A stretch of 64,000 bases of DNA from an uncultured Bacteroidota bacterium (GCA_963711345.1 CAVQDS010000002.1:717869-781868); one strand, 5' to 3'. Shown: positions 12,458-58,423, counted from the stretch's first letter. Notes: generated by a model from the sequence alone, not told the origin. Numbers and translations are program-made.

Positions 12458-13819
12458 ATGCTGGGAAAGTTAACCGGTTGGGACGACACCATCGTGGCAC
12501 TTGCTACAGCCCCGGGCATCGGTGCACTGGCGGTGATCAGGCTGAGCGGGCCTGATAGTATCAAGATTGTAAAAGGATTATTTCCTTCCAAAGATTTATC
12601 GAAGCAGGAATCGCATACACTGCATGTGGGCATGTTGAAAAACGGGGAGGAGGTATTGGATGAAGTTGTCATTTCGATTTATCGCGCACCGAAATCTTAT
12701 ACAGGTGAAGATGTGGTGGAGATAAGTTGTCACGGTTCCGTGCATATCGAAGATAAAATTCTCGCAGCATGTATTCATCATGGAGCAAGGCTTGCACGCG
12801 CTGGCGAATTTACACAAAGAGCTTTTCTGAAAGGAAAGATGGATCTCACACAGGCAGAAGCTGTGGCGGATCTGATCGCATCGCATTCGGAAGCTTCACG
12901 TGTTTCCGCACTGCATACAATGCGTGGTGGATTTGCAAATGACCTGAAAATATTGCGGGAGCAGTTGCTGGGATTTTCGGCGCTGATGGAACTGGAACTC
13001 GACTTCTCCCAGGAGGATGTGGAATTTGCGGACAGGAAAAAATTCTATACACTGATTGAAGAAGCACAGCGTGTAACATCAGAACTCATCGAATCTTTCG
13101 CATACGGCAATGCGATTCGTCAGGGAGTGCAGGTAGCGATTGTAGGGAAACCCAATGCTGGTAAATCGACACTGCTGAATAGTTTACTGAATGAGGATCG
13201 CGCCATTGTAAGTGAGATTGCCGGTACCACGAGAGATACCATTGAAGAAATAATTATTATTGAAGGAATAGAATTCAGGCTGATCGATACAGCGGGTATC
13301 CGCGCGCATACATCAGACAGGATCGAACAGATGGGCATGGACAAGACAAAAGAGAAAATAGAACAGGCAGATATTGTGATGGAGATACTGGATGCTTCAG
13401 AACCCTATCACGAAAATCTCCAGGTAGAAAAAGAAAAACTCTTACGTGTATTAAATAAAACAGATTTGTTTTCTGATGGGATGCCCGGAGTAAATTATCT
13501 GAATCACGATTTGATTTTTATTTCGGCAAAAACTTCCTTCGGCGTGGACAAATTAAAACGCGCCTTAGTGAAGCGTGTGCTCAATGGAAAAAAACCCCGC
13601 GAAGGAACCGTTGTTACCAATGCGCGTCACCACGAAGCGCTGACAAAAGTCGCCATCGCACTGCAGGATATCCGCACCGGTCTCGACAACAAAGTATCCG
13701 GCGATCTCCTCTCATCTGATATCCGCCGCGCTCTTCATTACCTCGGTGAGATCACGGGCGAGATCACCAACGAAGAACAACTGAGTTGGATTTTTGGGAA
13801 GTTTTGTATCGGGAAGTAA
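12458..13819 (+). CDS. mnmE: tRNA uridine-5-carboxymethylaminomethyl(34) synthesis GTPase MnmE
   Basis: It has a G domain (GKPNAGKSTLLN, DTAGIR, NKTD) and the family-typical C-terminal FCIGK. It is intact at 453 aa. Confidence 0.95.
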   Translation: MLGKLTGWDDTIVALATAPGIGALAVIRLSGPDSIKIVKGLFPSKDLSKQESHTLHVGMLKNGEEVLDEVVISIYRAPKSYTGEDVVEISCHGSVHIEDKILAACIHHGARLARAGEFTQRAFLKGKMDLTQAEAVADLIASHSEASRVSALHTMRGGFANDLKILREQLLGFSALMELELDFSQEDVEFADRKKFYTLIEEAQRVTSELIESFAYGNAIRQGVQVAIVGKPNAGKSTLLNSLLNEDRAIVSEIAGTTRDTIEEIIIIEGIEFRLIDTAGIRAHTSDRIEQMGMDKTKEKIEQADIVMEILDASEPYHENLQVEKEKLLRVLNKTDLFSDGMPGVNYLNHDLIFISAKTSFGVDKLKRALVKRVLNGKKPREGTVVTNARHHEALTKVAIALQDIRTGLDNKVSGDLLSSDIRRALHYLGEITGEITNEEQLSWIFGKFCIGK

Positions 13820-14059
13820 CCTCTCCACGATAGATGCACGTTCCCTGCGAAGTACATTCAGTCTCACGGTAATTCATTTGCCTTTTGTTGCTTTTCTTCG
13901 CCTTTAGTAGCCTTTCTTTCGGTACTAATCTGTTACTAAATCCTGTTCTCGTAAAGTGCTTGATTTTGGTGGCCAGATTATAGGTCACAATGATACGGTA
14001 TGATACCTTATGATACGTAATGATACAGTATGATACCTTATGACACGGAATGATACAAT
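13802..14059 (+). repeat. Junction J0 (attL-like): core inside mnmE + type-1 arm + Box B + Box C + 7 decamers
   Basis: The core TTTTGTATCGGGAAGTAAC (13802-13820) contains the mnmE stop codon. It is followed by ctctccacgatagatgc..., Box B tactaatctgttactaaatcc (about 13923), Box C ggtggccagattataggtcac, and ATGATACNNT x7 (13990-14059). Confidence 0.85.
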
Positions 14060-14310
14060 ATAATAGTAGTTCGATGATGTGTTAATTCTTCGAAAATTAG
14101 GTATTGGAATAAAAGGATAAGCATTGAACGATGACATAATGAATGCTATTTTTGCATTAATGAAAATTGGCAACAGTCAACGATACAAAATTTTACCAAT
14201 GGTCTATGTAATTTTTAATTATGAATAATATATGGAAGATATTATAGATCAAATTTTGACCACCCGGTTTTACTGAAATTTCTTAACTTACTATTTAATA
14301 GCCATGTGTA

Positions 14311-15012
14311 ATGAATATCCCCGCCTTTTTTAAGTCTTTATTAATCTTGTTTGTGATTGCCTTCACCTGTATGAACGTCAGTGGGCAGACAAACAGTGAT
14401 TCATTAACCGTGAAAAATAAACTTGTTGCACTTCGAAATGATTTCGTTAGCAAAATTGAGGCCATGGGGTATCATCCACGGCTTAATTCACCTGAAATTA
14501 TAATGGATAACCCGCCTTCTTTTGGAAACTACAATGATTCGAGCAATACCATTCGTACCAGCAATTGGAACACATTATCTGCAGCAGACAAAGAACTGTT
14601 TAACAGAGCCGGCAAGAGATATGGATATTCCGGAGAAGATTATTTTGAGTCCAGTGCACATCGTTGGATTTTCATCCACGAACTCGGACATTGGTGGCGA
14701 GCCTGCCAGCAACAGGTGACTGATCCTTATTCGAGTGAAATGGCAGCTAATAGGATCGATATCGCTTATTGGCGGGAAACAGATACTGCGTACAGCAGTT
14801 TTTCCAGACGGCGACATGAAAATTATCTTAAGTTGATGCCTAATCCCGTTCCTGAAGGGCAGGATAAGCAAAAGTATCTAAATGACAATTATGGTAAGCT
14901 ACCAATACCCGTTTATATCTGGTATCAGGCTTCGATGATTGTTGATGGATATAACGAGACACCAATAGCCTCGTTCAAAGAAGCTATTAAACTTGCCGGT
15001 AACAAAAATTAG
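14311..15012 (+). CDS. Secreted protein with an HExxH motif (possible zinc-metallopeptidase-like), function unknown
   Basis: It has a signal peptide (LILFVIAFTCMNVSGQ) and an FIHELGHWW motif. I recognise no further family. Confidence 0.5.
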   Translation: MNIPAFFKSLLILFVIAFTCMNVSGQTNSDSLTVKNKLVALRNDFVSKIEAMGYHPRLNSPEIIMDNPPSFGNYNDSSNTIRTSNWNTLSAADKELFNRAGKRYGYSGEDYFESSAHRWIFIHELGHWWRACQQQVTDPYSSEMAANRIDIAYWRETDTAYSSFSRRRHENYLKLMPNPVPEGQDKQKYLNDNYGKLPIPVYIWYQASMIVDGYNETPIASFKEAIKLAGNKN

Positions 15013-15090
15013 CGGACGATGTTATTTATAGGTTTCCCACCTTCTGAAAAGGCCAATTCAAAACTTCATTTCTTGGGGGAGGCTCTATCT

Positions 15091-15321
15091 GCCTTTGGTT
15101 GCTTTTCTTCGCCTTTAGTCGCCATTCTTTCGCTCCTAATCTGTTACTAAATTCTGTTCTTGTGAATTGCCATGAAATGATGGCCAGATTATGGGCACTA
15201 ATGATACTGTATGATACGGTATGATACGGTATGATATCGTATGATACGGTGAAAATCCAGAGCTCCTAAGGGAAACCATGTATGAGAGCTGCCGGAATAT
15301 TACGCGTTGAGGAAACTTGAT
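15091..15321 (+). repeat. Junction J1: Box B + Box C + 5 decamers + 70-nt tail (no Box A or core)
   Basis: It reads ggttgcttttcttcgcctttagtcgcc..tcctaatctgttactaaattc..tggccagattatgggcac. The decamers are at 15201-15250. The tail at 15251-15321 is shared with J2 and J10. Confidence 0.8.
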
Positions 15322-15477
15322 TTATTTATTGTGGGTTTAAGTATATAATGGAAATAGATGAAGCATGAAATCTGAAGCAAATGAGAAATGGTCAGACTCA
15401 TTAACAATTCCTTTTAATAAATTTAACTATTTTTGAATGAGCATTTTATTCTGTCTCATCGCCCAAACCTTATCGGC

Positions 15478-15957
15478 ATGAAATCAGTAATTGTCAGTGC
15501 AATCTCCTGCGCTATCTTTCTCGCAGCTTGTAATAAGAACGGTACTACACTTACACCCGCACAAGCAATAGAAGGCAGTTACACCGCTTACAAACACCAC
15601 CGCTTTGACTCGGTAACCAGCTACCCGGTTAATGGCAGAACGATAACCATGCAAATTGATGCCATTGGCGAAGACTCCGTCAGGCTGCAAATCAGATCTG
15701 TACAAAATGGATTCTATTCTCCGGGGGACACGGTTATTGATCGTCACCTATTCGTTCAAAAGATGTTTACAGGATACCAGGTTTCGCTTGGCGACCCGGT
15801 TGATCCCGGCACTGCCGAAAATTCTATTAGGTTTGATGCTTCATTTGATCGCTACTTTGGCGTTTATCTATATAATGGTTACTATGGCTATTATGTATAT
15901 GTGCCGCCAGGATACAAACAGGGTGCCGTACAAACTCTTTTTAAAAAAATGCAATAA
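15478..15957 (+). CDS. Lipoprotein, unknown function
   Basis: The ATG at 15478 gives MKSVIVSAISCAIFLAACNK (lipobox LAAC). This is preferred over the upstream alternative start at 15433 in the ORF track. Confidence 0.5.
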   Translation: MKSVIVSAISCAIFLAACNKNGTTLTPAQAIEGSYTAYKHHRFDSVTSYPVNGRTITMQIDAIGEDSVRLQIRSVQNGFYSPGDTVIDRHLFVQKMFTGYQVSLGDPVDPGTAENSIRFDASFDRYFGVYLYNGYYGYYVYVPPGYKQGAVQTLFKKMQ

Positions 15958-16170
15958 GACCAAAGCCGTGAGTTCAGTCTCTCTTTTTCTTTGGTCGCCG
16001 TCCACGATCTGATTAATGTTTCCTTCGGGCTCATGGTGAACAGCTCCCGGGTTCCGGCATAGGCCCGGATTCGCTTCTCACGATGTTTTAGCCTGGGCAG
16101 GAATCCACCGGCAAAAACTAAAACCGGGTACCAGAGCACAACATAAATTCTGGTTTTGAGATTTGACTGT

Positions 16171-16320
16171 TTTTTGGTGGCCAGAATATGGGTCACAATA
16201 ATACGGTATGATACGGTATGATACGGTATGATATCGTATGATACGGTGGAATTCACATGCTCCTAAGGGTAAACATGTAGAAGATCTTGCGTATTGCAAG
16301 AGTTGATTAAACTCGATATA
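16171..16320 (+). repeat. Junction J2: Box C + 5 decamers + tail (no Box A, core or Box B)
   Basis: It reads tttttggtggccagaatatgggtcac. The decamers are at 16198-16247. The tail ggaattcacatgctcctaagggtaaacatg... is homologous to 15251-15321. Confidence 0.75.
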
Positions 16321-16381
16321 TTTAATATTGAAACCCGCACGTATTAACACAAACTCTTATTTCAAAACAAAGTTTCCACTT

Positions 16382-16840
16382 ATGTTTAAAGCGATTTATC
16401 TCTCACTCTACTTATTAATTACGATTATTTCTTCAAAAGGCCAAAGTATTGACAGCCTTAGATTGAATGATAGTGAAATACCCATTGGTTATGCGAAGAG
16501 TAATGAACTGCTTTGTAAAACGCCTCATGCTTTGTCAATATACCAACAGATGGACATGTTTGAATCATTTTTAGGTAAATTAGAACATAAAGATTTCCAA
16601 TCCTTTGAGAAAAAGGGAGATTCAGGCAGTATTTTATACTTTCAATTTCAGAAAGATTTTACAGGTCAAGGGTTTTTAGACGGCCTACTATGGGGATCGG
16701 ATGGTAAGCCAAGTAAATCAGAACCTGATGAGTACTTTGCTAAAGGGAACATACTTGTTGTCTGGAGTTTTAATTTAAAGAGCAACCTAAAATCCATTTC
16801 GAAAGAAAAGGTGGAAAGACTTTCAAATTCTATTAAGTAA
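16382..16840 (+). CDS. Hypothetical secreted protein
   Basis: The ATG at 16382 gives MFKAIYLSLYLLITIISSKGQ (signal peptide). I recognise no domain. Confidence 0.45.
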   Translation: MFKAIYLSLYLLITIISSKGQSIDSLRLNDSEIPIGYAKSNELLCKTPHALSIYQQMDMFESFLGKLEHKDFQSFEKKGDSGSILYFQFQKDFTGQGFLDGLLWGSDGKPSKSEPDEYFAKGNILVVWSFNLKSNLKSISKEKVERLSNSIK

Positions 16841-16848
16841 AGAAAAAT

Positions 16849-17187
16849 ATGGAAATTACTTTGAAAGATTATATAAGGAAAACCTTGGAAGAAATAAATG
16901 CAGGTCTGCCTGCGGGGTACGTCATTGAAGAAACCATCGATTTTGAAGTTTCAGTTAGTACAAGCCTCAATAAAAAGGGTGGAGTGGAGATAAAAGTGTT
17001 TACTGGTAACATTTCAAAAGAAGATCAATCTATCCAAACCGTGGCTTTTTCGGTTATCAATGAGGCAGATAAGAAAAAATCATTCGACCAATCGGCCAAA
17101 CACTTATTGAATTATATAGAAAAGGGGATAAAGCGTTTGTCGAAACTTTCAGAAAACCAAAAGCCATTCAAAAAACAAGGCGGTTAA
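16849..17187 (+). CDS. Hypothetical protein (112 aa)
   Basis: It is an ORF with an ATG start, tightly spaced after the previous gene. I recognise no domain. Confidence 0.4.
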   Translation: MEITLKDYIRKTLEEINAGLPAGYVIEETIDFEVSVSTSLNKKGGVEIKVFTGNISKEDQSIQTVAFSVINEADKKKSFDQSAKHLLNYIEKGIKRLSKLSENQKPFKKQGG

Positions 17188-17217
17188 CAGGAATCTAAGA
17201 TTTGAAGAAGGTACTTT

Positions 17218-17469
17218 ATGTTTAAGCGAGGCAACCCAATAGTATTTAAGAAAGGAAATGTTTCAGCACTTTTCGTTAGCACTCTTATGAGGATTAAAAA
17301 CGATATCGAAGGCGAGACCGAAGACTATATTCTTAATGTAAACGAATTGGAATATTCGGCGCATTTAGCAAATAAGTATAAATTTTTGGTACCCGAAATT
17401 CATTTTGACCAAGTTTATGCAGATAGTATGATGGGCCCTGTTTACAGGACAGATATTGTGTTAAACTAA
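17218..17469 (+). CDS. Hypothetical protein (83 aa), adjacent to an IS3 insertion
   Basis: It is a short ORF ending about 20 nt before the putative IS end. It may be a remnant of a longer gene. Confidence 0.3.
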   Translation: MFKRGNPIVFKKGNVSALFVSTLMRIKNDIEGETEDYILNVNELEYSAHLANKYKFLVPEIHFDQVYADSMMGPVYRTDIVLN

Positions 17470-17555: not shown

Positions 17556-18374
17556 TCAGGCTACTTTTTTTTGCAGATAACATTCTGCAGGCGTTTTATA
17601 TTCGAGCGACTGGTGTGAGCGCTCGTGATTATAAAAAGAAAAATATTTCTGTAAGCCTTCATAAAGTAGAACGCCGTCCTGGGCCACATGCAGGTAAATG
17701 TGTTCATACTTCACCGATCTCCAGAGCCGCTCGATAAAAATATTGTCGATCGCCCTGCCTTTACCATCCATGCTGATCTGTATTTGTCTTCCCAACAGCA
17801 GGCCGGTAAAAACATCACTGGTAAATTGCGAGCCCTGATCGGTATTAAATATTTCCGGACATCCGTGCATTTCAAAAGCTTCTTCGACAACCCCGCCGCA
17901 CCATTCCGCTGTCATCGTATTACTCAGACCCCAGTTCACTACAAAGCGCGTATGCAAATCAATCACAGCGCATAGATACATAAACCCCCGGCGCATCGGA
18001 ACATACGTAATATCCATAGCCCAGACCTGGTTGGGTCTTTCTATCCGTAGACCTTTGAGCATATAGGGATAGAGCCTGTTTTGCTTATCGGGTTCACTGG
18101 TATTTTTATACCGGTACAACGTCTGCCATCCCATCACTTCCATCAGGCGTTTGGTCCGCTTGCGGTTAATTTTAAAATCCTGTTTCTTCAACCAGACCGT
18201 AAGCTTTCTGGATCCGTAAAACGGCGTTTTATAATACTGTTCATCCAGCAGACGCAGGATGGTCAGATTCTCTTCACTCTCCCTGCAGGGGGTGTAATAC
18301 AACCCGCTGCGATGAAGACCCAGTAGTCTGCATTGCCTTACAATACTCAAAGAACTATGTTTATGATCAATCAT
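17556..18374 (-). CDS. IS3-family transposase OrfB (DDE/rve integrase core)
   Basis: The sequence shows a typical rve domain (WAMDITYVP..FNTDQGSQFTS..YNHERSHQSL). Confidence 0.9.
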   Translation of the reverse strand: MIDHKHSSLSIVRQCRLLGLHRSGLYYTPCRESEENLTILRLLDEQYYKTPFYGSRKLTVWLKKQDFKINRKRTKRLMEVMGWQTLYRYKNTSEPDKQNRLYPYMLKGLRIERPNQVWAMDITYVPMRRGFMYLCAVIDLHTRFVVNWGLSNTMTAEWCGGVVEEAFEMHGCPEIFNTDQGSQFTSDVFTGLLLGRQIQISMDGKGRAIDNIFIERLWRSVKYEHIYLHVAQDGVLLYEGLQKYFSFYNHERSHQSLEYKTPAECYLQKKVA

Positions 18375-18400
18375 GGAACGATGTTCGCAAACCGGCTTTG

Positions 18401-18682
18401 CTATAAATTTTTTTTTAAAAAGTCGTTTTCCACTTTTAGTTGCCCGATCTGGGCATACAACTTCTCGGTTTGTTTTTCATGATCTGCAGCATCATCTGCT
18501 TTGTCTGCTCCAAATACCGAAGACATATTGGCTATCGCTTCCTTCTTCCAAATATTTATTTGATTGGGATGCAACTCATGCTTGCGGGCCAGCTCCTCAA
18601 TCGTGGAGCGTTCCCTTAATGCTTCCAGTACAACTTTCGCTTTGAATTCTGCGCTGAATTTACGCCTGGTTTTCTTTGCCAT
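18401..18682 (-). CDS. IS3-family transposase OrfA (HTH)
   Basis: MAKKTRRKFSAEFKAKVVLEAL.. is a typical IS3 OrfA. It ends in LKKNL at the A9 run, and the -1 frame continues into OrfB. Confidence 0.85.
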   Translation of the reverse strand: MAKKTRRKFSAEFKAKVVLEALRERSTIEELARKHELHPNQINIWKKEAIANMSSVFGADKADDAADHEKQTEKLYAQIGQLKVENDFLKKNL

Positions 18683-18697: not shown

Positions 18698-19234
18698 ATG
18701 AAAAAATCATTCTTAAATACCTGTCCTATTTTTGGGGAACATCATAATAGCTATGAAGGAGAAATTCCCGCAGAATACTTTCCTGTAAGTTTTGATGTTC
18801 ATTCTGGGAAAAAATATAAAAGAGAAATTATCCAATATTGCATACCATGCGCTGGTGACGTAAGATTGCTCAACTATAGCCCTGCGTCGATGATAACATT
18901 GGGAGGAGGAGGAAACTTTGAAATAGATGGCAATACTTTAGTTACAGAAGTAATTAATTTCTATAATAATCCTGAAGAAATAAAGGGCAAATACGATAGC
19001 GAAGTTGGAGGAATCCACAGCAACTACTATACTTTAAAAAACGATATAGAAAATTTTAATTCTTCTCTAAACGATCAAATACTAGTTACGTTGCGACAAC
19101 GAAAGCAAAAAATACTTTCTAAAAATAATCTTCTTTCGCAATTGGGTGTTCCACTTAAAAAGAATGACGGTGTTGCTTCTACATTTGCTATTCCAAATCC
19201 CCAACACCGGGGGCTTTCCCTGAATATACCTTGA
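18698..19234 (+). CDS. Hypothetical protein; 5' end probably disrupted by the IS
   Basis: The first ~15 codons of the ORF overlap the putative IS terminus. The remainder has no recognised domain. It abuts the truncated rhs frame. Confidence 0.3.
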   Translation: MKKSFLNTCPIFGEHHNSYEGEIPAEYFPVSFDVHSGKKYKREIIQYCIPCAGDVRLLNYSPASMITLGGGGNFEIDGNTLVTEVINFYNNPEEIKGKYDSEVGGIHSNYYTLKNDIENFNSSLNDQILVTLRQRKQKILSKNNLLSQLGVPLKKNDGVASTFAIPNPQHRGLSLNIP

Positions 19235-22200
19235 CAAATAGTTTTCCATCCACTACAGCGGCTAATATTTTGACCAGTACATATTATGATGATTATAGCT
19301 GGGTTGCATCATCGGGGTCAACTATTGCTGCAACGTTCAACTCCAGTGGAAGCAGTAATTTCTTGGCAGCTTCATCTTCGTTTCCATATCCTCAGGCACT
19401 AACCCAGTCTCCCCAAACAAAAAGTTTAGTTACCGGAACTGTTGGGAAAGTATTGGGAATAACCACAACCCAATATTTATATACAGCCAGTTTTTTTGAT
19501 ACTAAGAGTCGTATAATACAGACACAAAGTATCAATCTTACAGGAGGATTGGATATTGCTACCAGGCAATTTGACTGGAATGGCAAAGCACTTAGGACAC
19601 TTTTGCAACACCAGAAAACCGGCACTTCGAACCCTCAGTCATATACTGTTCTTTCTATAATTAACTATGATGCCTGTGGAAGGTTGCAATCCATCACAAA
19701 AAATGTAAACAATGGGACGTTGCCGGCAGATCAGCAAATCATTGTTAACAATACATACGATGAGCTTGGCCGATTAAAGACCAAAGCCCTTGGCGCCCTT
19801 GATAACCTGACTTACGATTATAATATCCGCGGATGGCTTTTAGGTATAAACCGTGCTTATCTGGGAACTGTAACCAACCCGGCGAATATTGCTCCTTCAC
19901 CAAGCAATTATTTTGGATTTGAGCTGGCATATGATAAAACAACATCGCAAGCCGTTGATAATTCCTACGTTGCTGCCCAATACAGTGGAAATGTTGCCGG
20001 GACTGTCTGGAAAACGGTAGGTGATGGGATAGGTCGCAAATACGATTTTACTTACGATAACGTCAATCGTCTTACAACCGCTGTATATAAACAGGATAAT
20101 GGCGGCGGTAGTTTCGATGTAAGTGCCGGATTGGATTTTAGTGTCAGCAATTTAAATTACGATGTCGACGGGAACATACTTAGTATGAACGAATCTGGCT
20201 GGCAGATAGGAAAGGGCAGTTCAACGATTGATCAGCTTACCTATAATTACACTGCTAATACCAATAAACTGCAAAATGTAATCAACCCGAACAGCAATGC
20301 AACAACTACGTTAGGAGACTTCAGGTATTCAGCTGCGTATACAAGTGCCCTGGGAGGTCCTAAACCAGCAACTGCACTCGATTATACCTATGATGTGAAC
20401 GGGAATTTGATTACAGATAAGAATAAGGACATAACCGCCATCACTTACAACTTTTTTAATCTACCTCAGCAGATAACATTAGCAAAAGGAACTATCCAAT
20501 ATATTTATGATGCAACAGGCAATAAACTTCGTAAAATAGCTTATGAAACAAATGGTAATGTGACTTATTTAGGAACCAACTATCCGACAGCTATTACAAC
20601 AACCACAACTTATATTAACGGATTTGATTATAAGACTCTTTCTTATGGTAGCACGACCTTACCCGCGGCTGTGTTGGCACAACAGTTTACAGATAATCTG
20701 CAGTCCCTCGAACACGAAGAAGGTCGCGTACGTGCACTTTACACAAATGTTGCGTCCCCCAACACTATAAACGGATATGCATTTGACTATTTTGAAAAAG
20801 ATCATCTGGGTAACACCCGGGTGATTCTGACTGATGAAGCTGAACAGGATATTTATCCACCCACAACACTTGAGGGGAGTACGACCAATACAAGCACTGC
20901 AGTTGGATATGAGCAGAACTTTTATAGCATTAATGCTGCATATATTGTTCCGGCCACAACTGCCACAGGTATTCCCGCTTATACGAATAACAATAATAAT
21001 ATCGGTACGAATTTATATCCCTCCGGTAATAGTGGAAATACGAATGCCACGAGCAATAGCCAGAATCTGTATCGCATCAATGGGAACCTGAACAAATTAG
21101 GTCTTGGAATTACTCTGAAAGTGATGGCAGGAGACAAGCTGGATATTTATGGTAAGAGTTATTATTTTACAAACAATTCAAACGATAATACCAGCTATAA
21201 TCTGCCCATTCTTACACTTCTTTCCGGCTTTTTGGGAGCACCAAATGTCTCAGCATTAGAAACTTCTGCCCATGCGGGTGTAACTGCAACGCAATTAAGT
21301 GGTATTACAAGTCTCACAAACAATGTTTCATCTTATCTGTCCAATAGCGCAAATGGCAACACGAGAACGGCCACAACTTCCTCCAAGCCCAGAGCATATG
21401 TTAATTGGATATTTTTTGACAACCAGTTCAACTATGCAGGGGGAGGATTTTATCCTGTTGGAACAGCGGGAGTATTGCAGGACTATTTTAATGTGAGTTC
21501 TCTCCACAATATAATCGTTCCCAAAAGTGGTTATGTTTATGTATATTGTAGTAATGAGAGCCCGGTTGATGTGTTCTTTGATAATTTCCAGGTTATTCAA
21601 ACCAGGGGACCCTTAATCGAAGAAAATCATTATTATCCGTTTGGACTTTCCATTGCTGGAATCTCCGATAAAGCAGTCAAGACAAGCTATGCTGAAAATA
21701 AAAATAGATTTAGTGGAAAGGAATTACAGAATCAGGAGTTTAGTGATGGGTCAGGTTTAGAAGATTATGATTTTGGTGCGAGGATGTATGATCCACAGAT
21801 CGGGAGGTTTTTTACCATCGATAAATTTGCGGAGAAGTATTACGGATTGTCACCATATCAATACACTGCTAATAATCCTGTAAATAGTCTCGATGTTAAT
21901 GGAGATACTATTTGGATAACGATTGGCGGACAAAACTATTATTTTGGTAACACGGAAGAGGGTGGCTACGGTTTTTATGGAAGTGATGGAAAAAAATATA
22001 ATGGAGATGACAAATTTGCAAATGCGGTTTCAGCGGCGTTGACCGGTTTTGCTAATTCAAAAGACAACGAAGTAAAAGACAGACTGAATGCCGAAATGTC
22101 AAGTAAATTTATAATAAAAATTGAAGCTGGACAAAATCAGGTTGAGAAAGTTATGTTAGATGATGGTTCGTACCAAAGTGTAAATGACCCGAATTTTGAT

Positions 22201-22581
22201 ATAAATAACCCTAAAATAGTAGGGGTGGTAGTGAATTGGAATGAAACAACTACGAATTCTGGTGATGGAGTTAAGAATAAAGATGGAGCGGATCCTGATT
22301 TATTACTGGCTCATGAATTATTGGGCCATGGGTTTCAGGCGATGATCCGACAACTTCAGGCGCCAGGGAAAACTACCAACGTTTATGTTGATGGATATGG
22401 TTATTTCCCGAGGCAGGAAAATGATGCGCAGGTAATAAGCAATAGAGTTGCAATAGGATCGGGCAGAACGAATATGGTTACACAAACATATTCAACCGAC
22501 AGAAATCCAATAAATCAAAAAGTTGCATATCCATTAATACCGACCGAAATTATTAAATGGAATAAAAACGCTAAATACTAA
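19231..22581 (+). CDS. RHS/YD-repeat protein fragment (5'-truncated) with a C-terminal HExxH toxin domain
   Basis: YD repeats occur throughout (YDxxGRL, YDxNGN). The RHS core end reads YYPFGL..GARMYDPQIGRFFTIDKF..YQYTANNPVNSLDVNGD. The variable C-terminus carries LLAHELLGHGF. The frame is open only from 19168 and has no ATG, so the N-terminal half is missing. Confidence 0.85.
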   Translation: MTNSFPSTTAANILTSTYYDDYSWVASSGSTIAATFNSSGSSNFLAASSSFPYPQALTQSPQTKSLVTGTVGKVLGITTTQYLYTASFFDTKSRIIQTQSINLTGGLDIATRQFDWNGKALRTLLQHQKTGTSNPQSYTVLSIINYDACGRLQSITKNVNNGTLPADQQIIVNNTYDELGRLKTKALGALDNLTYDYNIRGWLLGINRAYLGTVTNPANIAPSPSNYFGFELAYDKTTSQAVDNSYVAAQYSGNVAGTVWKTVGDGIGRKYDFTYDNVNRLTTAVYKQDNGGGSFDVSAGLDFSVSNLNYDVDGNILSMNESGWQIGKGSSTIDQLTYNYTANTNKLQNVINPNSNATTTLGDFRYSAAYTSALGGPKPATALDYTYDVNGNLITDKNKDITAITYNFFNLPQQITLAKGTIQYIYDATGNKLRKIAYETNGNVTYLGTNYPTAITTTTTYINGFDYKTLSYGSTTLPAAVLAQQFTDNLQSLEHEEGRVRALYTNVASPNTINGYAFDYFEKDHLGNTRVILTDEAEQDIYPPTTLEGSTTNTSTAVGYEQNFYSINAAYIVPATTATGIPAYTNNNNNIGTNLYPSGNSGNTNATSNSQNLYRINGNLNKLGLGITLKVMAGDKLDIYGKSYYFTNNSNDNTSYNLPILTLLSGFLGAPNVSALETSAHAGVTATQLSGITSLTNNVSSYLSNSANGNTRTATTSSKPRAYVNWIFFDNQFNYAGGGFYPVGTAGVLQDYFNVSSLHNIIVPKSGYVYVYCSNESPVDVFFDNFQVIQTRGPLIEENHYYPFGLSIAGISDKAVKTSYAENKNRFSGKELQNQEFSDGSGLEDYDFGARMYDPQIGRFFTIDKFAEKYYGLSPYQYTANNPVNSLDVNGDTIWITIGGQNYYFGNTEEGGYGFYGSDGKKYNGDDKFANAVSAALTGFANSKDNEVKDRLNAEMSSKFIIKIEAGQNQVEKVMLDDGSYQSVNDPNFDINNPKIVGVVVNWNETTTNSGDGVKNKDGADPDLLLAHELLGHGFQAMIRQLQAPGKTTNVYVDGYGYFPRQENDAQVISNRVAIGSGRTNMVTQTYSTDRNPINQKVAYPLIPTEIIKWNKNAKY

Positions 22582-22594
22582 TCGGGATATAATC

Positions 22595-23149
22595 ATGATT
22601 AAACTTTTGATGGTCTCATTATTGTACCTTAATAACTATAATTGCAGAGAAGCTTATCTTAATGAAGTTTTAAAAAGCAATGATCTGGCCCGGTATTTTA
22701 TTGTGGTGAGAGCGAAAATCGATAACAATGAACAAGAAATAGTTGTCATTAATTACTATTTACATAACTTAATGAAATCGCGTGATAGCTCCTTTAACGA
22801 TTTAAATCATTATGTAAACTTCATGAAGAATAAAATTCAGCAAAACGAGCCAATAGAAATAAATAAGAGCGAATTCGTCAGAATCAAGGCGGCAATAGTT
22901 GAGCTGGATACGGGTGTAGCTGCTGCGGCTGCAAAAGGGAAAGAATATTTATTGCACAAGTATTTTCATGTGTCTGATAAATATAACTATGCAAGATTGA
23001 ATCCGGATATTAAAAACGACAAGGTTGCATATATAGCAAAAAAATTGTTCGATTGGAATTATTTTATGGCCATTGTAGAAGGAGACATTAATGTGCAAAA
23101 TCTGAATTTTTGCGATAACTATTCCGACAGCAGTTTAATTCGGAAATAA
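22595..23149 (+). CDS. Putative cognate immunity protein of the Rhs C-terminal toxin
   Basis: It is a 184-aa ORF starting 14 nt after the rhs stop. The call rests on position only. Confidence 0.4.
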   Translation: MIKLLMVSLLYLNNYNCREAYLNEVLKSNDLARYFIVVRAKIDNNEQEIVVINYYLHNLMKSRDSSFNDLNHYVNFMKNKIQQNEPIEINKSEFVRIKAAIVELDTGVAAAAAKGKEYLLHKYFHVSDKYNYARLNPDIKNDKVAYIAKKLFDWNYFMAIVEGDINVQNLNFCDNYSDSSLIRK

Positions 23150-23364
23150 AGAAGTAAGATCCTAAAAACTGAAAATACTTAAGTGAAAAGATTTAAAGAA
23201 AAACGGGCTTTTTACTAGTGTGGGTTTATGGAATTGAATAAAATGGAATACGTCATTTTATCGTCTGTCTGTGACATGGAAGGTTTTCTATAGGCAATAA
23301 TCAATAAAGATCTTGAATCTTCATTTTTTCAAAATAATCGGTTCAATTGTCGCAAAATTCCGGT

Positions 23365-23537
23365 AACTAATCCGTCACTAAATCCCCGCAAACCCACTGG
23401 AATCGCGGCACAGTACTTTTTGTATCGGGAAGTAACCTTTTCAAGATAGATGCGCGTTCCCTGCAGAGTACTTTCATTCTCACGGTATTTGATTTGCCTT
23501 TATCTGCTTTTCTTGGCTACTAATCTGTTACTAAATA
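23365..23537 (+). repeat. Junction J3: Box A + exact core + type-1 arm + Box B (truncated, no Box C or decamers)
   Basis: It reads aactaatccgtcactaaatccccgcaaacccactggaatcgcggcacagtac, then the core at 23418-23436, then cttttcaagatagatgcgcgttccctgcagagtac..., then ctactaatctgttactaaata. Confidence 0.85.
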
Positions 23538-23750
23538 TTGGTATATCCTTTTCAATGCGGTTAAACAAACTATTCGACCGATTTATGGAATTTTAGCTGC
23601 TTCATATAGAAAAAAGACTATTTGTTTCCGGATTCACTTAAACGTCAAAAATCGTTTCAACCAAGAATTTAAAGTTAGATTCAGTTCCCAAACTGATACT
23701 AATTCAGACTAACTCCGTAAGTATCAGCCGAATTTTTTTCACATGTCAAT

Positions 23751-24011: not shown

Positions 24012-24902
24012 CTAAAGGTAGTTTAGTAGTTTTTCATTTTCAAAAGGGATCGGATTATAATTTTTCCATACGGTGTCAGGAGTCTGTCTTTTCAGTGACC
24101 AGTGTTTCCTTTTTTCATTGTACCATTTGTAATAACGGTCGATAACCATCTGTGCATGGAAGATAGATTCGAACTCAAAACGATCTATCACTTCTCTTTG
24201 CAGATTCGAGTGCAGGGCTTCGATGTAGGCGTTGTCCTGTGGTGTGGCAACGTGAGAGAACTCCTGGTAAATGCCTTTTTCTTTCAGGTATTCCCGGACA
24301 GCAGTTGCTATAAACTGGGAACCGTTATCATTTCTGAGCGACATCCCTTCAGCTTTATATTCCAGCAACATCAGCGACAGCATTAAAAGCACATCGCCTT
24401 TTTTGATACTTTGACGAAGCATATGGATCAACACTTTCCGTGAATAGATATCCATTACTGTTAGAAGCAGAGCATTTCTGCCCGTGCCATGCACGTGAAC
24501 ATATTTAATATCCATCGACAGGTATTGCAAAGGACGCTCTGGCCTGAGACTTCTGAAGCGGATAAAATTCCGTTTGAAAGGTGCAACTCTTATTCTTGCT
24601 CCGTAAAGCAGTTTTGATTCCTTCATCAGCCTATAGACCTTTTTGTGATTGATGATCCAACCCTTCTCTTTTAACTCACCTGTCATATGCCTGTATCCGT
24701 AACAACAAAACTCCTGCGATAGTGTCTGTTCGATATCCTTTACTACTACGGCGTTTTCAACGAGTTCACCGTCAGAGTTCACACTGTGCGTGCTCGGTTT
24801 TATTCCTTTGGGTGACAGTGATCGTTTGTAATAAAAGCTGCTTGCGTGAAGACCCGACCACAAGAGTAAACGCCGTACACAAATGCCCCGAAGTTTATAC
24901 AC
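24012..24902 (-). CDS. IS3-family transposase OrfB (DDE/rve)
   Basis: The rve-type core reads LSMDIKYVHV..LRNDNGSQFIA..YNEKRKHWSL. Confidence 0.9.
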   Translation of the reverse strand: MYKLRGICVRRLLLWSGLHASSFYYKRSLSPKGIKPSTHSVNSDGELVENAVVVKDIEQTLSQEFCCYGYRHMTGELKEKGWIINHKKVYRLMKESKLLYGARIRVAPFKRNFIRFRSLRPERPLQYLSMDIKYVHVHGTGRNALLLTVMDIYSRKVLIHMLRQSIKKGDVLLMLSLMLLEYKAEGMSLRNDNGSQFIATAVREYLKEKGIYQEFSHVATPQDNAYIEALHSNLQREVIDRFEFESIFHAQMVIDRYYKWYNEKRKHWSLKRQTPDTVWKNYNPIPFENEKLLNYL

Positions 24903-24904
24903 TC

Positions 24905-25225
24905 TTACGAGCCCTTCAGCCTCCGCTCGTAAGCCTCGTTTTTTTTTAAAAGCTCCGTCTTAAACTCAAGCTCGAGTGCCTGGTTACCGATAATCTTTTT
25001 CAATCTTGCGTTTTCTTCCTGCAATGCCTTGAGCTCCGGATCAACTTTGTGATATTGCGGCTGAAGTAATTTTGCACCGCCCTGATTGAACTGACTTCTC
25101 CACCTGAGAAAAAGACTGTGGGCTAAATTGTGTTTACGAAGGGTTTGAGTAACCCCATTTTGTTCCGCTTCCTGGATTATTTGAAGCTTCTGTTCCACAG
25201 AAAAGCTTCCGCGTGTCTTTGCCAT
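24905..25225 (-). CDS. IS3-family transposase OrfA
   Basis: It has an HTH and leucine-zipper-like OrfA (..LQEENARLKKIIGNQALELE..). The -1 frame after the A9 run reads into OrfB. Confidence 0.85.
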   Translation of the reverse strand: MAKTRGSFSVEQKLQIIQEAEQNGVTQTLRKHNLAHSLFLRWRSQFNQGGAKLLQPQYHKVDPELKALQEENARLKKIIGNQALELEFKTELLKKNEAYERRLKGS

Positions 25226-29344: not shown

Positions 29345-29363
29345 AAAAACGACCTAAATCTCC

Positions 29364-33260: not shown

Positions 33261-33326
33261 TGACCACAAACGATGAATTCATTGGGATATGCCTGGATCA
33301 CTACAAATAGCGCCTAAAAACTCGTT

Positions 33327-39628: not shown

Positions 39629-39646
39629 TTTAATACTTAAACCCCG

Positions 39647-47246: not shown

Positions 47247-47319
47247 GTTTATATGTTATAAAATCCATTTTTAAACTTATAAGAGTCTCGCACCAATAAG
47301 TAAGGACCTAAATTTCATT

Positions 47320-47545
47320 TACCAATCCGTCACCAATTCCCAGCAAACCCACTGGAATCGGCCTACAGTACTTTTTGTATCGGGAAGTGCTCAAAATGAT
47401 TATTTGCGCAATGAATTGAACATCAACGAGGGAGAAAACAGGCGAAATCACTGAAAGCCGGTAAGCTCACCGGAGGTTCTTGGATAAAACTTCACAATTT
47501 CCAGATTGCGCTCAATCAACTATCAAAAACCGTCCTGTTTATGAT
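47320..47545 (+). repeat. Junction J9: Box A + core + type-3 arm
   Basis: It reads ttaccaatccgtcaccaattcccagcaaacccactggaatcggcctacagtac, then core 47373-47389, then the arm with caggcgaaatcactgaaagccggtaagctcaccggaggttcttggataaaacttca. The palindrome is at 47458-47473. Confidence 0.8.
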
Positions 47546-48235: not shown

Positions 48236-48484
48236 CGTAAAGCTTTATTTTATTACCGGACATGCGGTCGAAATTGCAGCATTAAAGTTAGAAGTTTAAA
48301 AATTAATGACCGCGAAAAAAGGCTGCCCGTTAATCTGGCAAGATAATTCCCCTGCTATATATTTAGTTATATTCTTTAAAATCGGCTCTTTTGCGTTGAA
48401 AATAATATAGCATCAGACGGACATTATGAACCTAAAGAAGTTATTAAACATCATTACTTGTAGTTATTTCGATAATTGATTGGT

Positions 48485-48845
48485 TACGAATCCGTCACCA
48501 ATTCCCCGCAAACCCACTAAAATCGCGGGACAATACTTTTGTATCGGGAAGTAACCAAGCCACGATGAATGCGCGTTTCCCACGATTGACGCATGTCCTA
48601 TTTGAATTCCTTTTGCTTTTTGTTGCCTTTCTTCGCCTTTAGTAGCCTTTTATTCGCACCTAATCTGTTACCAAATCAAGATTCTTCCAAGGGTTTTATT
48701 TAGTGGCCAGATTATGGGACACAATAAAACTGTATGTTACCCAATGTTACGGTATGATACCGTATGATACTGTTAAAATCCAGGGCTTCTAAAGGAAACC
48801 ATGTATGAGAACTGCAGGAATATTACGTGTTGAGGAAACTTGATA
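48485..48845 (+). repeat. Junction J10: Box A + exact core + type-1 arm + Box B + Box C + 4-5 decamers + tail
   Basis: It reads tacgaatccgtcaccaattccccgcaaacccactaaaatcgcgggacaatac, then core 48537-48555, acctaatctgttaccaaatca, tagtggccagattatgggacac, the decamers at 48734-48773, and the tail at 48774-48845, which is homologous to 15251-15321. Confidence 0.85.
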
Positions 48846-50766: not shown

Positions 50767-50807
50767 TAGTGCGTCTGCTGGGACACTATAAATGCCATCT
50801 AAAAATT

Positions 50808-50990
50808 CGTCACTAATCTGTCGCTAATTCCCCGCAAACCCCCTGGAATCGCGGGACAGCACTTTTTGTATCGCCGTGAATTGGAAATACCGGGAATTCG
50901 CAAAATCTTGAAAAACAATGAGAGAGCTTACAGGCGAAACCACCAAAAGCAGGTGAGCTCACCGGAATAGAGTTTTACAAATGCCAGACC
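50808..50990 (+). repeat. Junction J11: Box A + partial core + type-3 arm
   Basis: It reads cgtcactaatctgtcgctaattccccgcaaaccccctggaatcgcgggacagcac, then ttttgtatcg (50864-50873), then the arm with acaggcgaaaccaccaaaagcaggtgagctcaccgga. The palindrome ggtgagctcacc is at 50952-50963. Confidence 0.8.
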
Positions 50991-52598: not shown

Positions 52599-52817
52599 GT
52601 AAATAAATTATGAAATACATATGCCTTACCCGAGGAGTGTCTGCAACGGACCCCCTGTTTGATCATTCCCAATTACGAGAATATATTCCTCAGCGAACTG
52701 TGAACTAACCGTTATTTAGTGAATGGTTTGAAATTTCCATTAATACAATGATTTTTGATACTGTTGACGGTCTAATTGACAAAGAAGAATAAGGCACGAA
52801 AACCGGTACGAATTCTG

Positions 52818-52930
52818 TATGAACCCGCTAATCCTGCGCGAGGGCCGTTTCTGTATCGGGAAGTGACCACTGGTTGACGGGCGGGACTACTATACTGTTA
52901 CAAAATTCAGTTTTTTGGATTTACTCAGCG
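52818..52930 (+). repeat. Junction J12 (degenerate): residual Box A + core + short type-2-like arm + Box B-like segment
   Basis: It reads ..cccgctaatcctgcgcgagggccgttt, then ctgtatcgggaagtgac (52851-52867), then cactggttgacgggcggga, then tactatactgttacaaaattcagttttttggatttactca (compare 33500-33540). Confidence 0.6.
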
Positions 52931-54679: not shown

Positions 54680-54705
54680 AGAAGAGAATGTTTTTGATTC
54701 CTTTT

Positions 54706-54792
54706 TTAAGCTTATCCTGCCAAAGGCGGGACTCCTGATCTATTACTAAATCTTCTTTCTCAGATTTCTCTATTTTAGGTAGCCAGATTATG
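54706..54792 (+). repeat. Junction remnant J13: type-2 hairpin + Box B + Box C only
   Basis: It reads taagcttatcctgccaaaggcgggactcctgatctattactaaatct...ttaggtagccagattatgtg. The hairpin cctgccaaaggcggg is at 54716-54730. Confidence 0.65.
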
Positions 54793-54964
54793 TGAAGGCT
54801 CCCCTTCTTTCCGGGCCATTCATTATTAGAGTTTTCCAGTTTTTAGTAATTACAGGGAAACGGATTGTTTCCCTTCAACAAACTATTTCGTCTAATTCCT
54901 GGGGATCTATTAAAGGACAGGTCAAAGGAGTGAAAGACGCGACTTTGTAACAAAACATTTTTTA

Positions 54965-57128: not shown

Positions 57129-57380
57129 TGGCGTTTTTGGTGGAATTTGACAAACGCCAGCCCGGAATCAATGCCGAAAAAATTATAAAAGATGAAGATA
57201 AGAATCGCAACTAAATTATATCATAATTTAGAGTCATGGGGCAGCCAATGGCGATAGTGCTAATTCTTCTTTTATCTGAGTAGCTTTTTTCAAGATAGCT
57301 TCTGCAAACTCTTCCAGATCCAGTTTAAAAAGAGTCGGTACAATTCAAACCCGGAAATACAAACATATAACTTAACAATT

Positions 57381-58220
57381 ATGAAAAATCTACACATTCT
57401 TTTCGTTCTTCTTTGTATCCAAATAAGTTCTTTTGCTCAAAATTCTAATGAATATGAAGTATATGCAATCCGGTTTGGGACAGAGGGGTCGCGTCAGCCG
57501 CTTTCGATTGCGGCAGCAGGCGCTTCTGACAAGGACAGTGTTCAGTTTTGCATGATGTTTTGGCTGCTGATAGGAAACGGTAAGCATATTTTAGTAGATG
57601 CCGGCCACATGCGATACAATAGCAACGACAGTGGTCTCTGGAAAAGTTATGTAAGACCCGATAGCGCATTGCTGAGAATGGGTATTAAAACAACAGAAAT
57701 TACTGACATCATCATTACTCATCCACATTATGACCATATAGGAGGGATTGTATTATTCCCATCTGCTCAGGTATGGATGCAAAAAGACGATTATGACTAC
57801 TTTGTAGGTGCTGCGTGGCAGAAGAATGGGTTTAATGAAGGTCTTAATAAAGAAGATGTAAAAAATATTGTTGCTAAGAACCTTGAAGGAAAATTAACCC
57901 TGATCAAAGGTGATAGTATTGAAATTTTTCCGGGTATCAGGGCATTCATTGGATCGAAACATACCTGGGAATCACAACATCTCCTCGTTAATACTAAAAC
58001 AGATAAAGTAATTCTTGCTTCAGATGATTGTTGGTTTTATTACAATGTTGAACATTTACTGCCTATAACCCATTACCTATTTGATCCGGAAGCTTACGTG
58101 AAACAATTGAAAAGAATGAGGGTCCTTCAACCCAATATTTCATTGATTATTCCAGGACATGATCCTCTTGTATTTTCCAAATTCCCTAAAGTAGCGGAAG
58201 GAATTGTTAAGATTAGATAG
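57381..58220 (+). CDS. MBL-fold metallo-hydrolase (lactonase-like), secreted
   Basis: It has a signal peptide, an HxHxDH motif (THPHYDHIGG) and a downstream H/D (PGHDP). Confidence 0.8.
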   Translation: MKNLHILFVLLCIQISSFAQNSNEYEVYAIRFGTEGSRQPLSIAAAGASDKDSVQFCMMFWLLIGNGKHILVDAGHMRYNSNDSGLWKSYVRPDSALLRMGIKTTEITDIIITHPHYDHIGGIVLFPSAQVWMQKDDYDYFVGAAWQKNGFNEGLNKEDVKNIVAKNLEGKLTLIKGDSIEIFPGIRAFIGSKHTWESQHLLVNTKTDKVILASDDCWFYYNVEHLLPITHYLFDPEAYVKQLKRMRVLQPNISLIIPGHDPLVFSKFPKVAEGIVKIR

Positions 58221-58360
58221 CTGTAAAATGAATTCAAAAAAGAACTGCTTATATCAGATTTTTTATGGCGTCTCACTTGAAATTCCGAATAGCAAAATCT
58301 CTATAATTTCTTATGAGTCGATACAATTTCATAACTGCCAAAAATGATTATTTATGAAAC

Positions 58361-58423
58361 GAACTGCAAAACGTCGAAATCCACTGGAAAAGCAGTACAG
58401 TACTTTTTGTTTCGGAAAGCAAC
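58361..58423 (+). repeat. Junction J14 (most degenerate): residual Box A + decayed core
   Basis: It reads gaactgcaaaacgtcgaaatccactggaaaagcagtacagtac followed by ttttgtttcggaaagcaac (58405-58423). Compare ..aaacccactggaatcgcgggacagtac + ttttgtatcgggaagtaac. Confidence 0.55.

Follow-up and report, generated by a model that had tools for sequence, protein, structure and literature searches.

Integrase-less units in tandem at the 3' end of mnmE in an uncultured Bacteroidota bacterium: a probable product of repeated site-specific integration

Introduction

In an uncultured Bacteroidota bacterium (GCA_963711345.1), the last codons of mnmE, the gene for a tRNA modification GTPase, recur many times downstream of the gene, in between blocks of genes of heterogeneous function. 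The DNA analysed here is CAVQDS010000002.1:717869-781868, a stretch of 64,000 nt that is referred to as the window, and positions given without a locus label are counted from its first letter. Within the window, mnmE (12458-13819, plus strand; Pfam TrmE_N, MnmE_helical and MMR_HSR1) is the anchor of an array that extends from 13802 to 58423, a region of 44.6 kb. An earlier description, made from the sequence alone (the sequence-only reading), regarded this array as integron-like and as the result of serial site-specific insertion of cassettes into mnmE, with no recombinase gene in view. This raises the question of which enzyme can have inserted units that encode none, and of how far the array can be compared to an integron. 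In this study, the region 13,802-58,423 is interpreted as an island that probably arose from repeated site-specific integration into the last codons of mnmE, through a trans-acting tyrosine integrase specific for the mnmE site. Integrases of this kind are encoded by larger elements (10-20 kb) that occupy the same site in relatives. The bacterium is a Puia-like one from soil, and its nearest named relatives are metagenome-assembled genomes (MAGs) of Puia sp. (Chitinophagaceae).

The core repeat and its arms

The core of the array, TTTTGTATCGGGAAGTAAC, is the FCIGK-stop end of mnmE and consists of the last 18 nt of the gene plus one nucleotide. A search of the whole 64-kb window with up to three mismatches, for which the chance expectation is zero matches, identified the core at (mismatches in brackets) 13802 (0), 23418 (0), 29419 (1), 33379 (1), 36900 (3), 39702 (2), 47373 (3), 48537 (0), 52849 (2) and 58405 (3). 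At 50864, the core is reduced to TTTTGTATCG. In total, ten copies are located downstream of mnmE, all on the plus strand. The recurrence of this 19-nt sequence had been noticed in the sequence-only reading, most of whose positions were exact, while 52851 and 36899 were off by 1-2 nt and are corrected here to 52849 and 36900. The core and the arm motifs described below are absent from the window outside 13802-58423.

On its left side, the core is adjoined by an arm of ~57 nt, in which two tandem 11-mers (GTYACYAAWYC) are followed by Box A (..AAACCCACTGGAATCG....ACAGTACT). Box A lies directly left of eight downstream cores, is degenerate at 52849 and has decayed at 58405. Box B is a tandem pair of the same 11-mer. 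Such a pair is found at -60 to -40 of every junction and again at +120 to +140 in two of the three right-arm types, and 15 of the 17 forward copies of the Box B motif in the window are part of junction modules. Comparison of the junctions divides the right arms into three types. The type-1 arm starts with GGAAGTRACC..GATGCGCG.. and continues with Box B, Box C and four to seven decamers, ATGATACNNT, phased at 10 nt; decamer runs (ATGATACGGT) with this 10-nt phase were confirmed by repeat analysis of the window. The type-2 arm contains GATGACGG/GGTTGGC repeats and a small hairpin, followed by Box B, Box C and decamers. The type-3 arm, which is ~150 nt long and very conserved, is devoid of Box B, Box C and decamers. 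Box A, Box B, Box C, the decamers and the three right-arm types had been recognized in the sequence-only reading. Its proposed layout, in which mnmE and the core are followed by right arm, cargo, left arm and the next core, is supported, and so is its idea that the motifs resemble arm-type recombinase sites.

The position of the core within mnmE has consequences for the reading frame. The C-terminus of MnmE is exactly FC[IV]GK in 120/120 of the nearest homologues. Arms of types 1 and 2 retain GG(G/A) AA(G/A) T(A/G)A, encoding Gly-Lys-stop, whereas type 3 does not, and the stop codon is restored by every arm observed directly after mnmE. Since a type-3 arm cannot restore the stop of mnmE, type-3 units must enter at internal junctions. 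The sole sequence common to all arm types, in a set of 73 junctions, is TTTTGTATCG. Mapping of the crossover by the first mismatch between pairs of junctions was abandoned, as too few pairs were informative, and the crossover was bounded instead by TTTTGTATCG and by a junction with the FCVGK allele (TTTTGT), which is described below.

Two further features of the type-3 arm were observed. Its start (for example at 36910-36945 and 47383-47420) is an inverted copy of the end of the left arm, GTACTTTTTGT..ACAAAATGTAC, which could be a second, symmetric core-type binding site. In addition, the two sides of a small stem in the arm, GGTAC/GTACC, vary together in some copies (GGCAC/GTGCC, GTCAC/GTGAC).

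Distribution in other genomes

The junction pattern AAACCCNNTNNAATCGNNNNACANNANTTTTTGTAT was used to scan sequence collections. It matched 13 stretches in species-representative genomes, all from Puia or unnamed Bacteroidetes MAGs, and 32 soil metagenome stretches, with no match in viral contigs. All motifs are co-oriented in every locus found with this pattern. Every array whose start is in view begins at mnmE, as observed in L022 (MnmE 91% identical), L050 (64%), L057 (97%), L058 (80%) and L059 (76%). The distinct junctions of all loci (n = 73) include 30 right arms of type 3, 18 of type 1 and 12 of type 2. In L058, one type-3 junction (14664-14690, minus strand) is inverted relative to the rest of the array and lies beside a copy of an IS3-family insertion sequence (IS), which suggests an IS-mediated or site-mediated inversion within the array.

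Strain comparison

Four contigs (L001-L004) have the same MnmE protein as the window, to which their upstream sequence is 98.5-99.3% identical. In L001 and L002 (98.6-99.3% in this upstream part), homology to the window is lost at 13821 and 13823, respectively, which is the end of the core, and unrelated genes are found beyond this point. L003 continues as the window does, and L004 stops at mnmE. L001 and L005 are located on one contig, in which the distance between mnmE and the DUF899 gene is ~75 kb versus 44.7 kb in the window. L005, L006 and L007 match the window from 54810/54825 to 64000 at 99.5-99.9% identity, and their upstream cassettes differ. In L005, a cassette with a short-chain dehydrogenase (SDR) gene is 95.6% identical to that of the window and ends in the core at window position 50873, inside the core. 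This cassette is followed by an 'empty' unit of ~180 nt (L005 1397-1581) and then by the NAGLU cassette (95.4%), which is the third in the window. L006 has the AraC/amidohydrolase cassette instead, at 85% identity. The shared cassettes are 5-15% diverged and the flanks 0.1-0.5%. As the cassettes are far more diverged than the flanks, this points to independent acquisition from a pool.

Presence/absence polymorphism at the core is observed between the window and L001/L002 (13821/13823), between the window and L005 (50873), and between L063 and L064, which are discussed in the next section. A comparison of this kind had been proposed in the sequence-only reading, and it supports, together with the array starts at mnmE, the serial insertion at one attB site in the last codons of mnmE that was postulated there. 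Differences that never break at the core would have overturned that reading, and this outcome was not observed. For the array of L001/L005, an 84% homologue (P0011) was found in an unrelated context without junction motifs. In L002, the core is followed (8757-11775) by a fragment resembling the N-terminus of HTH_17 (8991-9125), an IS21-family element (IstA/IstB) and a SusC/SusD pair; judging from these genes, this region may be a disrupted integrase-type element.

Integrase-bearing elements at mnmE in relatives

As noted from the sequence alone, no recombinase is in view. A tyrosine or serine recombinase was found neither in the array nor in its flanks by Pfam analysis of 50 open reading frames (ORFs) of the window, and a recombinase motif scan of all six frames of the window was also negative. 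The same scan recovered 120/120 members of the integrase family described below. A search for a recombinase in relatives was successful when MnmE homologues were followed. In L057 (MnmE 97%), a type-1 arm with its Box B, Box C and decamers adjoins the core and leads into an element of more than 10 kb without an internal junction. Encoded on this element are an OLD/UvrD pair that is Gabija-like, RadC, an HTH_17 protein of the excisionase family, a tyrosine integrase of 378 aa, two more HTH_17 proteins and a DUF3987 primase. The integrase contains the domains Phage_int_SAM_5 and Phage_integrase, and ~93 N-terminal residues have no domain assignment.

Six homologues of this integrase were looked up, with identities of 90, 88, 88, 67, 66 and 54%, and in every contig that extends to mnmE, the integrase gene is located downstream of it, at a distance of 1.6-9 kb. 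The corresponding loci are L060 (GCA_025450795.1), L061 (on a 4.47-Mb contig), L064, L066/L067 (Puia sp.), L068-L070 (Sphingobacteriales bacterium 50-39) and L071 (Chryseobacterium sp., CP188202.1; 54% identity). From these sequences, the integrase family appears to share its target with SGI1 and to keep the mnmE site from Chitinophagaceae to Flavobacteriia. In the close group of integrases, a common 3.3-kb module, RadC-98aa-HTH_17-150aa-Int, has variable cargo on both sides, giving the elements a mosaic structure.

The elements and the integrase-less units of the window share their arms, and in Puia-like genomes the elements begin with the type-1 arm. The mnmE-side arms of the elements are 79-86% identical to the type-1 arms of the window over 214-310 nt, and the type-1 arm of cassette 1 is 82-85% identical over ~235 nt to the starts of the L057 and L061 elements and 81% identical to that of L064. 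Complete elements flanked by core repeats have been identified in L067 (4147..14193) and L070 (1002..~20075). The right end of the L067 element, with GTCACTAATCTGTCACTAATTCC..AAACCC.. and then the core, has the same layout as the left arm in the window, and the right end in L070 carries the two 11-mers, as in L067. For the Chryseobacterium element, a core search revealed no right end.

The same 14-kb element (99.9% identical) is found in L064 after mnmE and in L063 after Box A, and homology between the two begins at the first base of the core. In this lineage, the core is TTTTGTGTGGGGAAGTGA, which fits the FCVGK end of MnmE. The core follows the mnmE allele of the host, being TTTTGTGTGGGG where MnmE ends in FCVGK. 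FCVGK instead of FCIGK ends were observed in L064 (1-89), in L063 (42-90) and in the proteins P0222, P0224, P0226, P0227, P0230, P0234 and P0240. The GTG codon in L063/L064 belongs to the core of the inserted element, indicating that the last residues of MnmE can be encoded by mobile DNA. Since the element supplies the last codons of MnmE and TTTTGTATCG is common to the arms, strand exchange would take place in the first 6-10 nt of the core.

Multiple genes that resemble defence genes are present at this site. In L057 (13001-15806), these are the genes of the Gabija-like pair, for an OLD-family ATPase and a UvrD-like helicase. L061 (16445-21137) encodes a DndB-domain protein, a T5orf172/ResIII helicase and an Eco57I-type enzyme, and L064 (610-7833) contains pentapeptide, nucleotidyltransferase and large helicase genes. 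Based on these gene contents, the mnmE site may serve as a defence island in some strains.

Proposed mechanism

In the proposed mechanism, circular DNA units would integrate at the end of mnmE. Each unit has an attP-like site, made up of a left arm (two 11-mers and Box A), a short putative crossover segment within TTTTGTATCG and one of the three right arms. A new unit would enter at the mnmE copy of the core or at any internal junction, with older units pushed away from mnmE and one core left per junction. The enzyme is most likely the tyrosine integrase of ~378 aa that is common in Bacteroidota, presumably aided by an excisionase-family HTH_17 protein as the directionality factor. The 11-mers and decamers are predicted to be arm-type binding sites for the N-terminal region of the integrase. 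The array has later been remodelled by deletions that remove cores, by IS3 insertions and probably by homologous exchange between the conserved arms. The ten units of the window encode no recombinase, so they could move only with an integrase supplied in trans, encoded either at another place in the genome or by an element that enters the cell. The sequence-only description of a recombinase-less system therefore holds for the window but not for the site, to which an integrase family is tied in relatives, on elements that share the arms of the cassettes.

As an extension of this model, which is put forward as possible rather than probable, the small units might be dedicated non-autonomous cassettes that are captured, excised and reshuffled in trans by the mnmE-specific integrase of master elements. 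If so, Chitinophagaceae would own an integron-like capture platform based on a lambda-type (arm-site) tyrosine integrase instead of IntI/attC. Integron-like capture of cassettes would then have a second route, with a different mechanism. There would then be two interchangeable classes of cassettes, types 1 and 2, which can adjoin mnmE, and type 3, which is restricted to internal junctions, and the defined att sites could be exploited for site-specific insertion in Bacteroidota.

Several observations weigh against repeated integration by a trans-acting integrase as the origin of the array. No integrase was found in ~330 kb of array sequence from 45 other loci or among 136 ORFs from 45 loci, and with the enzyme lacking both there and in the window, the window's own units may not have been mobile recently. 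Type-3 arms, the commonest type (30/73), are absent from all integrase-bearing elements observed, and the full Box A on the elements of L057, L061 and L064, whose right ends were not reached, is inferred from the more distant L067. In addition, the window comes from an assembly of the metagenome type, which is the one source for the order of cassettes 2-9. The strain breakpoints 54810 and 54825 lie just past a Box B/Box C module without a core and not at a core, and core and Box A have been lost at the internal junctions 15087, 16133, 32112, 45211 and 54703. These off-core breakpoints and core-less junctions indicate that deletion contributes to the variation, and homologous exchange between arms probably does so too.

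Alternative explanations

Lost cores and off-core breakpoints are also what would be seen if the units were dead remnants of full elements, that is, cis-mobilizable elements (CIMEs) from which the recombination module has been deleted, with the variation among strains arising from homologous recombination and deletion between the ~300-nt arms and not from site-specific movement of cassettes; this is the main rival. The CIME concept is established (PMC5704250), and since the elements are mosaic around the 3.3-kb module, deletion of this module would leave cassette-like pieces. However, the window and 55 other loci contain, by tblastn, no remains of Int, RadC, the primase or the proteins of 150 aa and 98 aa; the one exception is the HTH_17 fragment in L002. 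Both arms are intact at most junctions and conserved across species, which is unexpected for decaying remnants, and very small units exist, of ~0.18 kb (the 'empty' unit of L005) and 1.15 kb. Together with the divergence of the cassettes relative to their flanks, which indicates independent acquisition, this makes an origin of the array from dead remnants unlikely. A true integron-like platform with a dedicated, unlinked recombinase of another family, in which the mnmE-site elements merely share the target, would account for the lack of an integrase in any locus selected through Box A, for the type-3 arms not being observed on integrase-bearing elements and for the many small cassettes with uniform ends. 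This explanation is considered very improbable, as the elements agree with the window in the type-1 arm (79-86% identity, including Box B, Box C and decamers) and in the 11-mers of the left arm, and no gene family is common to the arrays in an all-against-all BLASTP comparison of 293 array ORFs. Also, covariation is lacking in Box A and in the type-3 arm, so no attC-like folded site is supported: for the CCGC..GCGG-type complements in Box A, no column pair exceeded shuffled alignments (69 junctions), and RNAalifold on 24 type-3 arms returned a covariation term of -0.36 kcal/mol, which is almost none.

The junction unit could, finally, be a generic dispersed repeat of the REP (repetitive extragenic palindromic) or MITE (miniature inverted-repeat transposable element) kind that matches mnmE by coincidence, and other short intergenic tandem and inverted repeats do exist in the window. 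The sequence-only reading had named this as one of two results that would overturn its own interpretation. The motifs are, however, confined to the array within the window, all copies are co-oriented, the array starts from the collection scan are all on mnmE, and the core tracks the mnmE allele of the host (TTTTGTGTGGGG with FCVGK). Moreover, contigs of 3.3 Mb and 2.1 Mb contained only two 8-kb stretches each, on the basis of which a dispersed repeat is rejected, as far as one scan allows, and is hardly credible. An involvement of dif/Xer, as in integrative mobile elements exploiting Xer (IMEX), was set aside by eye: no dif-like dyad was seen, and the cumulative GC skew runs without a switch across the window.

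Comparison with known systems

The closest precedent for the site is SGI1. The repeat of SGI1/MGIVchHai6 at the 3' end of trmE is TTCTGTATTGGGAAGTAA (PMC4958241). It covers the same last 18 nt of the gene as the array core, TTTTGTATCGGGAAGTAA, with 16/18 positions identical, which bears out the precedent cited in the sequence-only reading. As in the array, the SGI1/MGIVchHai6 elements are flanked by imperfect direct repeats and restore the reading frame. They make use of a tyrosine integrase with an excisionase-type partner (PMC4958241), as the array probably does, and tandem arrays of up to 6 copies of SGI1 have been reported (PMC5704250). In contrast to the array, SGI1 belongs to Gammaproteobacteria and carries int beside trmE in every element, whereas ten successive units without an integrase are found here. 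The arms of SGI1 are unrelated to those of the array, and the integrase described here differs in domain architecture, being of the Bacteroidota type with Phage_int_SAM_5. The same 18 nt of a universally conserved gene are thus a landing pad in two distant phyla.

Among tandem islands of tyrosine integrases, direct repeats of the 3' end of the target gene mark every unit boundary, which is also the case in the array. A cognate integrase within the units is absent from the window and was found only in L057, L060, L061, L064, L067, L070 and L071. As in CIMEs, att sites bound the window units, and genes for integration and transfer are lacking. The CIMEs related to ICESt1/ICESt3 of Streptococcus thermophilus are likewise attL/attR-flanked and without such genes; they follow one another at the 3' end of a conserved gene and require a foreign integrase (PMC5704250). 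They differ in that one or two decayed elements lie beside an integrative and conjugative element (ICE). The array has ten units, many of which are small; their arms are well conserved, and nothing is left in them of recombination genes. In the tycheposon islands of Prochlorococcus, repeated integration at one site also pushes older units inward and leaves partial target copies scattered, integrase-bearing elements are rare and transient relative to the islands, and the cargo is niche-adaptive (10.1101/2020.12.28.424599). Tycheposons differ from the array in their tRNA gene target, recombinase family and phylum, and their remnants are degenerate, unlike the conserved arms here.

Integrons and clusters of attC sites lacking integron-integrases (CALINs) provide a functional analogy only. 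They too have one chromosomal site with mostly co-oriented accessory cassettes, and arrays without an adjacent integrase are possible. In an integron, intI adjoins the insertion site together with attI and Pc, and the attC sites are imperfect palindromes, poorly conserved in sequence, that function as folded single strands. At the mnmE site, intI and attI are absent, and the junctions are conserved direct-repeat sites of ~300 nt and of the double-strand type, not attC hairpins. Integron cassettes are mostly single promoterless ORFs, whereas the units of the array are multi-gene, with opposite-strand genes and regulators of their own. The mnmE-site integrase scored 55 bits against the integron-integrase model, for which the cut-off is 265. 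The structural part of the integron comparison made in the sequence-only reading thus does not hold; the likeness of the array to an integron is one of function, not of membership. The rAID-1 arrays of Bacteroidales have, by definition, an XerD-like recombinase gene at the 5' side and, after it, immunity genes in the same direction (10.1101/471110). This system is thus not the one found here. It resembles the array in its occurrence in Bacteroidota, its repetitive intergenic sequences and its low G+C content, and cassette 1 of the array encodes an Rhs toxin with small ORFs. It differs in that no recombinase is found in the window and that the cargo of the array is mostly metabolic or regulatory.

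Within the literature searched, no description of mnmE-targeting elements or of comparable arrays in Bacteroidota was found. What is new is that small units without an integrase form a long array and have elaborate, conserved att arms, and that a Bacteroidota-wide integrase family is associated with the target of SGI1. Variable islands of Bacteroidota can be sought in genomes and metagenomes with a simple marker, the combination of mnmE, integrase and arms. For the Puia lineage, the site has turned into a 45-75 kb store of strain-specific genes, with a turnover much faster than that of the surrounding chromosome. This store holds hydrolases, regulators and an Rhs toxin in the window, and the Gabija-like pair, DndB-domain and restriction-type genes on the integrase-bearing elements.

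Cargo and junctions of the window

The ten units of the array are 1.2-9.6 kb in length and contain up to ~11 ORFs each. The G+C content of the array is 38.5%, versus 43-44% in the flanks, and 27/37 ORFs are co-oriented with mnmE, with 10/37 on the opposite strand. According to Pfam, the cargo is heterogeneous and includes the Rhs toxin, small ORFs, an SprB/CHU_C surface protein, NAGLU, an S9 peptidase, three amidohydrolases, an SDR, an FG-GAP protein, a cupin and an MBL-fold protein. Regulators are also encoded, namely AraC, MarR, OmpR-type and Crp-type proteins and a LytTR two-component pair. Two IS3 copies are the only transposases in the window, and no known RNAs or tRNAs were detected in it (Rfam at the gathering score; ARAGORN).

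Cassette 1 starts after core copy 1 (13802-13820, the attL side), with a type-1 right arm at 13821-14065 that comprises Box B (13925-13943), Box C (13971-13992) and seven decamers ATGATACNNT (13990-14065). All junctions and modules described here are on the plus strand. An internal module at 15087-15262, with a partial type-1 arm, Box B, Box C and decamers and without Box A or core, represents a junction that lost its core, and a second Box B/Box C/decamer module without a core is found at 16133-16259. The cassette is interrupted by an IS3-family insertion sequence with two ORFs (17556-18682, minus strand; Pfam rve, rve_3, HTH_21 and HTH_Tnp_1). Its cargo at 19231-23149 consists of the gene for the Rhs-repeat toxin, with an M91-like C-terminus, and a 184-aa ORF. 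Upstream of the toxin, five small ORFs have no Pfam match (cassette 1 parts 14311-17469 and 18698-23149), and each of the first three is preceded by a Box B/Box C/decamer module. Judged by gene order, this layout resembles a toxin with orphan immunity genes.

Junction 2 (23361-23540) consists of the left arm (23361-23417), the core (23418-23436) and a truncated type-1 arm with Box B at 23520. The second IS3-family insertion sequence (24012-25225, minus strand; Pfam) lies in cassette 2. Junction 3 (29362-29613) combines a left arm and the core at 29419-29437 with a type-2 arm, containing the GATGACGG/GGTTGGC repeats, the hairpin, a Box B-like motif and Box C. Between NAGLU and a 284-aa ORF, a decayed junction (32112-32185) was recognized as a repeat family, in which only the sequence that normally precedes Box A is left; the NAGLU block of L005 ends at the equivalent position and is followed there by Box A and a core. 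Junction 4 (33322-33628) has a left arm, the core at 33379-33397 and a type-1 arm with Box B, Box C and decamers. Junction 5 (36843-37070) has a left arm, a core at 36900 of which only TTTTGTATCGG is retained and a type-3 arm. Junction 6 (39645-39938), with a left arm and the core at 39702-39720, has a type-2 arm with Box B, Box C and decamers.

In cassette 6, repeat analysis identified an orphan decamer run (45211-45275), which is a probable decayed junction. Junction 7 (47316-47542) has a left arm, the core at 47373-47391 and a type-3 arm, and junction 8 (48480-48785) a left arm, the core at 48537-48555 and a type-1 arm with Box B, Box C and decamers. In junction 9 (50807-50966), a left arm is followed by the 10-nt core (50864-50873), within which the homology of L005 ends, and a type-3-like arm. 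Junction 10 (52792-52927) shows a degenerate left arm, the core at 52849-52867 and a type-2-like arm. A module with a hairpin and Box B-like and Box C-like motifs, without a core, is found internally at 54703-54802, and the block shared by all strains begins just after it (54810-54834). The distal boundary (58348-58423) consists of a decayed left arm and a decayed core, TTTTGTTTCGGAAAGCAAC, which is also present in L005, L006 and L007. Beyond this boundary, DUF899 and the genes that follow are conserved.

Other features of the window

Upstream of the array, the neighbourhood of mnmE is exbB-exbD-exbD-tonB-mnmE. A nuoN-like gene (6345-7650), a MacB/FtsX-like gene (7714-9005) and the amidohydrolase gene of cassette 4 (35178-36421) are split into overlapping ORFs. 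L001, L003 and L057 have unbroken versions of the nuoN-like and MacB/FtsX-like genes (463 aa and 430 aa). The split genes are probably assembly indel errors or recent pseudogenes.

Tandem runs of 7-8 nt occur as inverted pairs around the nuo and exbBD-tonB genes, at 2202-2233/2304-2336/2729-2762, 2674-2719/2842-2870 and 10101-10163/12376-12446. In one pair, four copies of AGTGTGAG face four copies of TCTCACAC; other facing runs are TAAAGCC versus TTTAGGC and ATCGTAT/CGATCCA, and none is related to the motifs of the array. Downstream of the array, the G+C content peaks at 54% (versus ~40%) at 59001-60000, over a gene for a PpoB2-type copper chaperone. Within this peak, the 12-nt tandem repeat TCGTGATGATGA is present three times and probably encodes a His/Asp-rich stretch.

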